IMG/VR virus record: IMGVR_UViG_3300025598_002259
Span: 5,876 to 69,875 of that record
Reading direction: 5' to 3' (one strand)
DNA from: a virus
Length of the DNA: 64,000 nt
The notes beneath the pieces were generated by a model, which worked only from the letters and a program-made list of their open reading frames with translations, searched no databases and was not told where the DNA came from. Below are positions 37,136 to 38,768 of the stretch, piece after piece (the first letter of the stretch is position 1; each line of letters opens with the position of its first letter). Position numbers and translations under genes: made by a program.

Positions 37136-37470
37136 TACTTACCCTCGTTATTAAATTCTGAAATACTTTCGATAAATTTCATATCTTCTTCGCTAGGCAG
37201 ATACCAACGGTTTTCTTTGAAATTCCAATGACGGGTATCATGTAAATCAAAGTTAAAATAGAATCCAAGAATACCGACGAAAATATGTAGTCCTGCATGA
37301 TCTGTTTTAAAAGTTAGATTAAAAGAAAAATCCACTATAATATCATTAATAATTCCGCAATGGAAATCAATAACTTTATTTTTGGAAACTTTCCGATTTT
37401 TTTCGTAACAATTATTATGAATAGGGTTGTTAATTAGAGGATTTCGTAAGCCAAAAGAAAAGTCAATCAT
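37135..37470 (-). CDS. hypothetical protein
   Basis: ATGA coupling at 37467-37470. Confidence 0.55.
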   Translation of the reverse strand: MIDFSFGLRNPLINNPIHNNCYEKNRKVSKNKVIDFHCGIINDIIVDFSFNLTFKTDHAGLHIFVGILGFYFNFDLHDTRHWNFKENRWYLPSEEDMKFIESISEFNNEGK

Positions 37471-38768
37471 TCTGTACCCCATTTAGTTACAACTTCAATG
37501 CCACACTTTTTCAAAAATGCATCTGGTAAAATACCGCCTGCATTAACAATAATAGCATTGTTCTCTATAATGCGCAAGTCATCTTTACCAATTTGGAGAA
37601 TAACATAATCCTCACCGATTTGTTGTACATTAGAATTTAGGATTACTTCTAAATTACCTTTTTTAACAGCACGATCTACACGTTGTCTATTAGCCGGTTT
37701 AGCTCTTTGAAAAGCTGTACCACGATATGATAAGGTAACATGATTACTAGGATCTGCTTCAGCAATACTAGCCGCAGCTTCTAATGCACTATCACCGCCA
37801 CCTACTACTAATATATGCGCGCCTTTATATTGTTCAGGATCAATAAGCCTATAAACTACTTTTGGTAAATCTTCGCCCGGCACATCTAGTGTTCTCGGGC
37901 TACCACGACGACCGATAGATAATAATACATTGGTAGCACGATATGTACCTAATAAGGATGTGATGGTGAATCCTGTATCGTCCTTAACTACGCTTTCTAC
38001 ACGCTCATTAAATTTGAAATTTAGATTGTGTAGTTGACGTTGTTCATCCCAAAACTTTAATAGTTCTTCTTTGGTGGTATTTCTAAAATGTACTTTCCCA
38101 ATAACAGGCAAAGTAACTGGCTGTGTCATGACTAGCTTTCTACGTGGGTATTTAAAAACTGTTCCACCCAACGAATCTTGTTCAAGGATTAGATAGGTAA
38201 GCTTTTCACTAATTGCAGTAAAAGCCGCACCAATTCCAGCAGGGCCGCCCCCAACAATAATAAGATCATACTGATTTTTCCCACGATCACAATTCTTAGC
38301 AATATTTTCAACAGCTTCTCTCCCTTGAGTTAAAGCGTTTTTGATTAATCCCATGCCACCTAATTCACCAGCAACATAGAGTCCGTTAACATTAGTTTCG
38401 AATGTGGGCTTAACCACTGGTAAATCTACACCACGACGCGCAGTACCAAATACTAAAGTAATTGCATCAACAGGGCAAGCTAACTTACAAGCACCATGGC
38501 CGATGCATTCGGTAGGACTAGTGAGAACTGCTTTTCCATTAATTAACCCTAGTACATGATGGTGACTTTCAGGGCAGGCTTTGACACAACCGCCGCAGCC
38601 GATGCATTGGTCACTATCAATTACTGGATGCATCGAAACAGTCTCTGTTAAACCTGCTTCTACCGCATCTTCTAATACTGCTATTGACTTTTTATGAGTT
38701 TTTCTTTTCTTTTTAAGATAGAAAATAATTACAATGGCAATAAATGCTAGATATATTAATGCGAACAT
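37467..38768 (-). CDS. membrane-anchored 4Fe-4S ferredoxin plus thioredoxin-reductase-like FAD/NAD(P)H oxidoreductase
   Basis: N-terminal TM; CIGCGGCVKACP and CIGHGACKLACP; GGGPAG (FAD) and GGGDSA (NADPH-type) motifs. Confidence 0.88.
   Translation of the reverse strand: MFALIYLAFIAIVIIFYLKKKRKTHKKSIAVLEDAVEAGLTETVSMHPVIDSDQCIGCGGCVKACPESHHHVLGLINGKAVLTSPTECIGHGACKLACPVDAITLVFGTARRGVDLPVVKPTFETNVNGLYVAGELGGMGLIKNALTQGREAVENIAKNCDRGKNQYDLIIVGGGPAGIGAAFTAISEKLTYLILEQDSLGGTVFKYPRRKLVMTQPVTLPVIGKVHFRNTTKEELLKFWDEQRQLHNLNFKFNERVESVVKDDTGFTITSLLGTYRATNVLLSIGRRGSPRTLDVPGEDLPKVVYRLIDPEQYKGAHILVVGGGDSALEAAASIAEADPSNHVTLSYRGTAFQRAKPANRQRVDRAVKKGNLEVILNSNVQQIGEDYVILQIGKDDLRIIENNAIIVNAGGILPDAFLKKCGIEVVTKWGTE

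Follow-up and report, generated by a model that had tools for sequence, protein, structure and literature searches.

We analysed a stretch of 64,000 nucleotides (the window), covering positions 5,876–69,875 of the phage record IMGVR_UViG_3300025598_002259 (69,875 bases). Within a long co-directional gene run, a single open reading frame (ORF) with an ATG start encodes a protein of 433 amino acids (aa) that combines a membrane anchor, a ferredoxin domain with two cluster motifs and a FAD/NAD(P)H domain. Hereafter this protein is called the flavoprotein. We propose, with a probability of roughly 0.6, that it is the NAD(P)H-side Fe–S flavoprotein of a trans-envelope conduit of the PCC3 type (PCC, porin–cytochrome cluster), which would resemble NADPH oxidases (NOX) and pass electrons outward. 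Its functional partner is very probably the inner-membrane protein (IMP) of PCC3. The first-pass annotation of the window had suggested that the flavoprotein could link NAD(P)H to a cytochrome module. Synteny, co-occurrence with the IMP, natural fusions and the homology of the phage porin all support this idea; the membrane link, a protein of the two-heme type whose gene lies some 4.4 kb ahead of the window, was missing from it.

According to the proposed mechanism, a single N-terminal helix would tether the cytoplasmic flavoprotein to the inner membrane, as partner of the five-helix, four-histidine IMP. NAD(P)H, probably NADPH, would give hydride to FAD, and single electrons would leave FAD through two Fe–S clusters, the His-ligated one possibly being the exit site. 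From there electrons may pass to the b heme on the cytoplasmic side of the IMP, across the membrane to the outer heme, on to c-type multiheme cytochromes and via the porin to the cell surface. In this way the phage would presumably set up or strengthen the export of electrons from the cell it infects, for example to reduce extracellular Fe(III) or to get rid of excess reductant.

At its start the flavoprotein gene overlaps the stop of a 101-aa ORF upstream, and at its end it shares 16 bases with the following ORF. At the N-terminus of the protein 18 hydrophobic residues precede KKKRKTHKK, and this anchor is predicted to have its N-terminus out and the bulk of the protein in the cytoplasm. The ferredoxin domain scores above the Pfam cut-offs of Fer4_10 (E 1.2e-11, residues 47–99, score 44.8 vs 25.5) and Fer4_21 (E 9.6e-11, score 42.1 vs 35). 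Its first cluster motif, CxxCxxCxxxCP, reads CIGCGGCVKACP (C55–P66, with C55, C58, C61 and C65), and the second, His-bearing motif CxxHxxCxxxCP reads CIGHGACKLACP (C88–P99, with C88, H91, C94 and C98). H91 is kept in 76 of 78 aligned relatives and C55, C61, C65, C88, C94 and C98 in all of them; C58 is present in 57, and Ser or Thr takes its place in 19. CxxHxxCxxxCP was also found in 121 of 150 distant representatives, and two all-Cys motifs in none of the 150. The His substitution is a family trait and not a sequence error. The flavoprotein would hold two Fe–S clusters, the types of which cannot be deduced from sequence. The seven closest relatives (P0002–P0008) are 84–89% identical to it, and bacterial relatives follow at about 60%.

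The flavin domain matches Pyr_redox_3 (E 1.2e-44, residues 170–426) and Pyr_redox_2 (E 1e-21) in Pfam. By its profile scores it resembles the YpdA and TrxR families and belongs to neither: it reaches 157.6 bits with the NCBIfam model of YpdA (TIGR04018, cut-off 339.9) and 70.9 bits with that of TrxR (TIGR01292, cut-off 343.45), and it lacks the CxxC of the latter. Apart from those of the ferredoxin domain the protein has just two cysteines, C160 and C422, neither of them conserved, so that the flavin domain has no redox CxxC; the family-conserved cysteines (the six invariant ones and C58) all lie within positions 55–98. Position 177, which pairs with the Cys of the YpdA motif GGGPCG in the alignment with 7a7b and 7a76, is Ala in 71, Ser in five and Gly in two of the 78 relatives. 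We take the first GGGPCG cysteine to be the catalytic one of YpdA. After the second Rossmann motif, R349, R355 and K357 are conserved in 73, 69 and 60 of the 78, respectively, and by comparison with TrxR and YpdA these residues would fit NADPH. The first-pass annotation had read the protein correctly in these respects, namely an N-terminal transmembrane segment, one all-Cys and one His-substituted motif, and a TrxR-like FAD/NADPH domain without an obvious redox CxxC.

These observations bear on the idea that the flavoprotein reduces disulfides as YpdA and TrxR do and in this way backs the ribonucleotide reductase and glutaredoxin of the phage. YpdA and TrxR are its best curated matches, a PHROG labelled as ribonucleotide-reductase-related matches it, and the genes for ribonucleotide reductase and glutaredoxin are 5–8 kb away. 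However, both scores are far under the family cut-offs and the position of the YpdA cysteine is mostly Ala. With the redox cysteines missing such a role is excluded for practical purposes, and we assign it hardly any probability.

An AlphaFold2 model built from the 78-sequence alignment has a mean pLDDT of 93.5 and a pTM of 0.86; it supersedes a poor earlier model from 17 sequences (mean pLDDT 67.4, ferredoxin domain below 50). Its elements are a helix at residues 2–37, a ferredoxin-like domain at 47–117, a strand at 130–133 and a helix at 142–159 (pLDDT of this block 83–97), and the two-Rossmann flavin domain from 167 onwards. The nearest solved fold for residues ~165–430 is YpdA/Bdr (PDB 7A7B, 7APR and 7A76), with E 2.2e-38 for the PDB profile 7a7b, E 1.7e-22 in Foldseek and a Z of 20.6 in VIA (262 residues aligned, root mean square deviation 6.0). 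TrxR, AhpF and TrxR-type ferredoxin–NADP reductases follow in the ranking. Every alignment spans residues ~165–430 of the target, which ends at 433, and stops at about residue 265–273 of homologous chains of 305–330 residues; over the VIA structural matches the end points range more widely, at about 264–297. Therefore the last FAD-domain segment of the homologs has no counterpart at the C-terminus of the target. The strand and long helix ahead of the first Rossmann motif contain GLYVAGELGG, in which G134, E135 and G138 are invariant in all 78 sequences. A weak HMMER alignment, insignificant alone, places profile positions 124–140 on YpdA 277–293, and a Pfam scan of residues 108–166 alone gave no family at E 10. 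The GLYVAGELGG unit is likely to be the relocated last piece of the FAD domain, in which case the protein would be circularly permuted. In a wide VIA search residues 162–433 alone were matched; the arrangement of ferredoxin and flavin domains was matched to no Fe–S flavoenzyme, which is no evidence of novelty.

The gene neighbourhoods of bacterial homologs are the first line of evidence for the partners of the flavoprotein. A scan of one genome per species gave at least 520 relatives among at least 600 pattern matches, and the best 80 loci (46–60% identity) were used. ORFs of at least 80 aa were called, and six ORFs on each side were clustered by BLASTP. The resulting neighbour counts are floors, because the ORF calling was crude and high-GC DNA yields antisense ORFs. 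Loci were classed as well-flanked if they had 6 kb or more of upstream and 3 kb or more of downstream sequence, which leaves 46. An ORF with at least six CxxCH motifs was found within six ORFs at 59 of the 80 loci (39 of the 46 well-flanked ones). A five-helix membrane protein of about 300 aa, the IMP, was present at 44 loci (28 well-flanked) and is usually divergent and adjacent. A TPR-plus-barrel porin of about 720 aa was found at 33 (27), and a periplasmic ankyrin/Sel1 protein of about 660 aa, with a signal peptide, lies directly downstream at 39 (25), the two genes abutting. Cytochrome, IMP or porin was present at 40 of the 46 well-flanked loci. The cytochrome cluster has a mean of 23.6 hemes, typically with one 21- or 24-heme protein and one larger. 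He et al. 2017 (PMC5566968; here and below, published work is cited from selected passages) describe PCC3 as a porin, a large extracellular cytochrome, a periplasmic cytochrome and an IMP, and our bacterial IMPs show the SGXXG motif and the two WX3HX13H motifs given there. The bacterial layout is the PCC3 cluster. Association with multiheme cytochromes and TPR-barrels had been suggested in the first-pass annotation, which asked for this very comparison and would have been contradicted by a lack of linkage; the suggestion turned out to be right.

A whole cassette is also found in a cultured member of the Bacteroidota, Emticicia oligotrophica DSM 17448, on plasmid pEMTOL02 (L099:8031-19829). On one strand it runs through ccsA, the IMP (profile E 1.3e-43), the flavoprotein and two cytochromes, of 23 and 40 hemes; a 538-aa secreted protein is part of the cassette as well. 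The homolog is named 'NAD(P)-binding domain-containing protein' in RefSeq.

The flavoprotein and the IMP also occur in the same genomes. Two genome samples were searched with profiles of both proteins. Among 121 genomes from the family of a Sideroxydans-type metagenome-assembled genome, 55 have both proteins, four the flavoprotein only, none the IMP only and 62 neither, giving totals of 59 for the flavoprotein and 55 for the IMP; in at least two of the four genomes with the flavoprotein only, its gene is at a contig end. Across the class of the same genome, the corresponding numbers for 300 genomes are 34, four, three and 259, one further genome (G378) being unscored for the IMP. The majority of genomes have both genes side by side on one contig.

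Natural fusions connect the two proteins still more directly. Of 1.84 billion cluster representatives, all of which were searched, 821 are relatives at E<=1e-30; the best 150 of these were examined with a hidden Markov model of the IMP. An IMP domain is part of the same polypeptide in 41 of these 150. The flavoprotein comes first in 37 fusions, mostly of ~735–770 aa, and the IMP in four; several of the fused IMPs lack the central loop. In P0191 five IMP helices are followed by the anchor helix of the flavoprotein and then by an Arg/Lys cluster. This coherent topology explains the predicted N-out orientation of the anchor. The flavoprotein is joined to multiheme cytochromes in P0131, P0205, P0201, P0230, P0204 and P0253; in P0205 a helix at 466–484 lies between the flavoprotein and a cytochrome with at least 30 hemes. 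Other fusions involve TPR regions and, in P0186, a TPR domain of the CcmH/CycH type. Some of the fusions could be joins made by gene calling. As a general cause this is unlikely, because the 41 representatives belong to separate 50%-identity clusters and show two orders. Note that in P0201 and P0230 the flavoprotein comes last in a chain of ~990 aa, after two FHA domains, a helix, a periplasmic segment with 6–9 hemes and a second helix. The FHA-bearing fusions hint at phospho-dependent regulation of such conduits.

The same neighbourhoods and fusions have to be considered for another role, in the maturation of c-type cytochromes. Here the flavoprotein might, for instance, provide reductant to handle heme or apocytochromes during synthesis of proteins with tens of hemes, and it would stay outside the conduit itself. 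In line with this, ccm genes are near the flavoprotein at 30 of the 80 loci (19 of the 46 well-flanked ones), in several Alphaproteobacteria the gene directly follows ccmFGHI, ccsA heads the Emticicia operon, and P0186 carries the CcmH/CycH domain mentioned above. However, ccm genes are expected beside genes for giant cytochromes anyway, and the fusions are with the IMP and cytochromes and not with Ccm catalytic proteins. Moreover, a related phage of 328 kb (92% complete by the estimate of its record) keeps the conduit parts and has no match to PF01578 (Ccm/ResC). We consider the maturation role quite improbable.

The phage itself, which belongs to a lineage of giant phages, carries counterparts of the PCC3 genes (Table 1). 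As noted in the first-pass annotation, a module 16 kb away from the flavoprotein gene contains ORFs with seven and five CxxCH motifs and a TPR-bearing 728-aa ORF (54731-58305), and all three are confirmed. The last is the porin: 29 of 38 porins from bacterial PCC3 neighbourhoods match it by tblastn (best E 3.7e-30), its TPR_16 match at 193–252 corresponds to one at 190–254 in a bacterial representative, and it is 76% and 67% identical to the porins in two related phage contigs. Both cytochromes have their best matches in the N-terminal parts of larger PCC3 cytochromes; the 7-heme protein is 34–38% identical to the N-terminal parts of the larger, extracellular-type ones (best E 3e-30). The mini-IMP of 149 aa, encoded before the window, keeps all 20 invariant columns of its family, including H67, H81, H125, H128 and H142, and has both WX3HX13H motifs and the SGXXG motif (S104-G105-x-x-G108). 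Two parts are missing from it, the N-terminal tail and a loop of ~115 residues that otherwise connects helices 4 and 5. The phage has both a five-helix IMP of the PCC3 kind, with SGXXG on helix 4 and WX3HX13H on helices 3 and 5, and a PCC3-type porin. When bacterial proteins were searched against the window by tblastn, none of 45 IMPs, 40 ankyrin proteins, 22 CcmI proteins and 10 cluster-8 proteins matched. The periplasmic 21–27-heme and the large extracellular cytochromes were not found, the window having only the 5- and 7-heme proteins. In the 328-kb relative, Cytochrome_C7 matches only the same two genes, and cytochromes missed by this profile are possible.

Two side observations concern the mini-IMP. 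Directly upstream of it, in this contig and in the 328-kb relative alike, there is a gene for a protein of 193–197 aa (G000:C1:1457-2050, equal to L088:1457-2050 on the minus strand, and L089:912-1493). The protein has a signal peptide and ends in an aromatic residue, as small outer-membrane beta-barrels typically do, and may contribute one more envelope component to the phage set. Homologs of the mini-IMP with 160 and 153 aa (58% and 52% identical) occur on two other viral contigs of 22 and 21 kb with 41–42% GC (L097:2974-3456 and L098:2968-3429), beside a ClpP-like and a peroxiredoxin-like gene, respectively, and no CxxCH ORF lies within 3 kb of either.

The 328-kb relative has the flavoprotein, mini-IMP, porin and two cytochromes spread over 70 kb, and a related fragment of 62.9 kb has flavoprotein and porin; three shorter fragments are too small to judge. 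Thus, in the comparison across related phages proposed with the first-pass annotation, flavoprotein and porin are kept together in both contigs that are long enough. All six phage copies of the flavoprotein are intact with dN/dS of 0.06–0.12, and dN/dS of the mini-IMP pair is 0.08. The phage copies are under purifying selection. Scans of IMG/VR with conserved family peptides returned the same five contigs only, and no full-length homolog was found in 50,697 GenBank phage records, where none of four partial matches covers 80% of the protein. In a quick tree with midpoint root and SH-aLRT support only, the six phage rows form one clade (support 100) nested in a 15-row clade (support 97) of mostly Steroidobacteraceae-like Gammaproteobacteria. 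The phage lineage probably acquired the flavoprotein from such a bacterium. The long stem (0.63) and the phage-like GC content of 37% suggest that the acquisition is old.

Heme oxygenases and bilin reductases need reduced ferredoxin, and the window encodes HemO and a protein of the Fe_bilin_red family 18 kb from the flavoprotein gene. The first-pass annotation had offered an alternative in which the flavoprotein supplies electrons to HemO/PcyX, and as a fused ferredoxin and ferredoxin–NADP reductase it would be suited for this, given its resemblance to the TrxR-type enzymes. However, neither heme oxygenase nor bilin reductase is found among the 25 largest neighbour clusters of the 80 bacterial loci, the genes are not adjacent in the phage, and the membrane anchor and IMP fusions point to a membrane partner. 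The neighbourhoods lend this alternative no support, and we regard it as very improbable.

We also predicted the complex of the phage flavoprotein and mini-IMP, with alignments of our own and riding ligands, in three runs and with three controls. The ipSAE is 0.52 in all three runs and 0.00 for the best control; 90% or more of the contacts are shared between runs, and the pLDDT of the partner is 80 or higher. The pass mark is one reached by 116 of 157 solved complexes and by 2 of 215 mismatches. It is important to note that only 18 of the 157 solved complexes, plus both passing mismatches, have scores <=0.60, and that the calibration is only rough because of our own alignments and ligands.

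Linkage and fusions are silent on the direction of electron flow. TrxR-type ferredoxin–NADP reductases are reversible, and the same partnership might run in reverse, extracellular Fe(II), minerals or partner cells feeding electrons through the cytochromes and the IMP to a flavoprotein that reduces NAD(P)+. However, reduction of NAD(P)+ by Fe(II) is uphill at neutral pH and inward electrons would oppose the membrane potential, whereas outward flow is thermodynamically natural. Inward flow has been favoured in the literature, where PCC3 is proposed for Fe(II) oxidation or electron uptake with a quinone-linked IMP and is often found in organisms that oxidise iron or sulfur (PMC5566968, PMC10734462). 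Against this, the flavoprotein family is widespread in aerobic heterotrophs and methylotrophs, and both PCC3 clusters of Sideroxydans ES-1 are down-regulated on Fe(II), which is not how an iron oxidase should respond (PMC8788666). Outward flow fits both observations, and a partner of the NAD(P)H type also favours electron export; the reverse direction seems to us unlikely. The IMP itself was proposed by He et al. 2017 to bind two b hemes via paired histidines and to link to quinones, and its two HX13H motifs were found to resemble the ferric-reductase domain of NOX and ferric reductases (FRE) (PMC5566968). Synteny, co-occurrence and fusions argue for a cytoplasmic partner of the IMP, instead of or besides quinones.

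For the phage we can imagine a minimal, nearly self-sufficient line for electron export that would be built into the host envelope during infection, consisting of NADPH–FAD, two Fe–S clusters, two b hemes in the 149-aa protein, twelve c hemes and the porin. It might, for example, reduce extracellular Fe(III) for iron supply or vent reducing power. We regard this extension as tentative and rather doubtful.

Several facts weigh against the assignment of the flavoprotein to an outward conduit. In the phage the parts are scattered and form no operon, the IMP gene being ~42 kb and the cytochrome and porin genes 16 kb away from the flavoprotein gene. Without a 21–27-heme cytochrome, the 5- and 7-heme proteins may be too small to bridge the periplasm by themselves. 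The two viral fragments L097 and L098 carry a mini-IMP, and in neither was a flavoprotein detected. In bacteria, three of the 46 well-flanked loci have ccm genes alone and three have neither conduit nor ccm genes; the flavoprotein gene is sometimes the last in a ccm operon. The flavoprotein was found without a detected IMP in 4 of 59 and 4 of 38 genomes and the IMP alone in three, several genomes have two or three IMP copies and one flavoprotein, and these co-occurrence counts are not phylogenetically independent. The ORF calling at the bacterial loci was crude. The predicted complex gives weak support. Finally, the function of every family member is read from sequence, and the published proposals favour the opposite direction.

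Table 1. Features of the flavoprotein gene, the putative conduit and other genes discussed (window positions unless stated otherwise)
Feature	Position	Strand	Evidence or remark
Flavoprotein, membrane-anchored, with putative 2x Fe–S ferredoxin and FAD/NAD(P)H parts	37467..38768	minus	single ORF, ATG start
N-terminal transmembrane anchor (residues 1–19)	38712..38768	minus	hydrophobic window score 2.49
Ferredoxin domain (residues 47–107)	38448..38630	minus	Fer4_10 and Fer4_21 above Pfam cut-offs
Strand and long helix (residues 115–165) with GLYVAGELGG	38274..38426	minus	precedes first Rossmann motif
Two-Rossmann FAD/NAD(P)H domain (residues 167–433), YpdA/TrxR-like	37470..38270	minus	Pyr_redox_3
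PCC3-type outer-membrane porin homolog, N-terminal TPR region, 728 aa	56119-58305	minus	tblastn
5-heme c-type cytochrome, signal peptide, N-terminal PLTGAH motif	55602-56189	minus	5 CxxCH; Cytochrome_C7 E 5.7e-8
7-heme c-type cytochrome, signal peptide, N-terminal PLTGAH motif	54731-55546	minus	7 CxxCH; Cytochrome_C7 E 3.8e-10
Mini-IMP, 149 aa	G000:C1:1003-1452 (outside window, ~4.4 kb before window base 1)		IMP profile E 1e-46
Heme oxygenase HemO	19346-19885	minus	overlaps bilin reductase gene
Ferredoxin-dependent bilin reductase family (Fe_bilin_red) gene	18694-19368	minus	with HemO, the HemO/PcyX pair of the first-pass annotation
CsgF	18166-18621	minus	secretion cluster
CsgG	17243-18163	minus	secretion cluster
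CHASE2 adenylate/guanylate cyclase	11771-13798	minus	secretion cluster

Auxiliary genes are plentiful in the window: HemO, bilin reductase, CsgG/CsgF, CHASE2 cyclase, ClpX, ClpS, Hsp20, peroxiredoxin, ribonucleotide reductase and glutaredoxin. A secretion cluster on the minus strand (11771-18621) contains, besides the proteins in Table 1, three secreted proteins of 306, 401 and 435 aa with FecR-like and PA14 matches. The GC content is 0.40–0.47 at 26001-30000 vs ~0.32–0.37 elsewhere, and the genes there encode a DUF454 protein, two small secreted proteins and a 468-aa DUF2828/DUF7788 protein (28600-30006). Sugar-modifying genes are numerous at 317-9263 and 59652-63818; they encode two GT17-family glycosyltransferases, a GT2 enzyme, a HAD–nucleotidyltransferase fusion, a methyltransferase and a protein of 1388 aa that combines GT1, GT2 and FkbM methyltransferase domains. 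Genes of a dTDP-sugar pathway are at 21502-24140. A proteostasis set at 20573-21401 and 33995-35227 comprises ClpS, Hsp20 and a ClpX-like ATPase with a C4 zinc finger.

Our literature search found no paper that links the flavoprotein to PCC3, or PCC3 to phages. The PCC3 papers, in the text covered, name four genes only, for the porin, the IMP and two cytochromes. He et al. 2017 (PMC5566968) do not use the terms 4Fe-4S, ferredoxin or FAD, and a 2025 Sideroxydans paper does not use 4Fe-4S, ferredoxin, thioredoxin reductase or NAD. For PCC4, a related Fe–S/flavin gene may already be among the 'redox genes' whose domain architectures are the subject of Supplementary Figure 4 in He et al. Hoover et al. 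2023 (PMC10734462) use the words ferredoxin and 4Fe-4S, for no PCC3 partner in the passages covered. A preprint on amoC phages (10.64898/2026.06.18.733297) concerns, in the part consulted, a NapC/NirT cytochrome, which is unrelated.

PCC3 is among the most widespread predicted envelope-spanning cytochrome conduits. A constant, often fused partner of the NAD(P)H type changes its published wiring, so that cytoplasmic pyridine nucleotides would be connected rather than, or besides, the quinone pool. The phage gives independent evolutionary evidence for the set of flavoprotein, IMP, porin and cytochromes, because the virus kept these parts and no Ccm genes. It also gives miniaturised parts (the 149-aa IMP and the 5- and 7-heme cytochromes) suited to reconstitution. 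If the phage does build the self-sufficient export line imagined above, this would be the first virus-encoded pathway of extracellular electron transfer, and phage auxiliary metabolism would widen to include such transfer. A stripped-down PCC3, small enough to be reconstituted, would then settle the function and direction of PCC3.

Comparison with known systems begins with PCC3 itself. The bacterial homologs of the flavoprotein adjoin all four named PCC3 genes, with a periplasmic cytochrome of 21 or 24 hemes, and homologs of porin and IMP as well as of the N-terminal cytochrome modules are present in the phage. The flavoprotein is not among the four published components; it is an unlisted but regular fifth partner. 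The phage versions differ in being reduced, with an IMP lacking the ~115-residue cytoplasmic loop, 5- and 7-heme cytochromes and no cytochrome of 21 or more hemes, and in having their genes scattered. Compared with YpdA/Bdr, the flavoprotein adds a membrane anchor and a ferredoxin domain for two clusters, and the last segment of the FAD domain has apparently moved frontward.

The TrxR-type ferredoxin–NADP+ reductases (3LZW, 3AB1, 2ZBW, 6GAS and 5TWB) share with the flavoprotein the TrxR-like two-Rossmann fold without redox disulfide, and they exchange electrons between NADPH and an Fe–S protein. Most likely the flavin domain works like these enzymes. They are, however, soluble and use a separate ferredoxin or flavodoxin, whereas here the ferredoxin is fused and membrane-tethered. 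Their C-terminal extension covers the flavin, and it has no counterpart at the C-terminus of the target, where residues 115–165 might take its place.

Finally, the likeness to NOX and FRE is functional, with cytoplasmic NAD(P)H and flavin, two b hemes and an acceptor outside the cell. The b hemes of the IMP would be held by histidines 13 residues apart on two helices, and the flavoprotein–IMP fusions mimic the single-chain layout of NOX. There is no membership by sequence: a representative IMP has no Pfam family at E 0.001, its profile gave only chance-level coiled-coil matches among PDB sequences (E>=0.19), and NCBIfam gave nothing meaningful. The flavin module is also of another fold class, belonging to Pyr_redox and not to the families of the ferredoxin–NADP+ reductase type found in NOX/FRE, two Fe–S clusters would be interposed, and the acceptor would be a cytochrome wire through a porin. 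By analogy, flavoprotein and IMP may together form a split, and in some bacteria fused, functional counterpart of NADPH oxidases and ferric reductases that works across the Gram-negative envelope.

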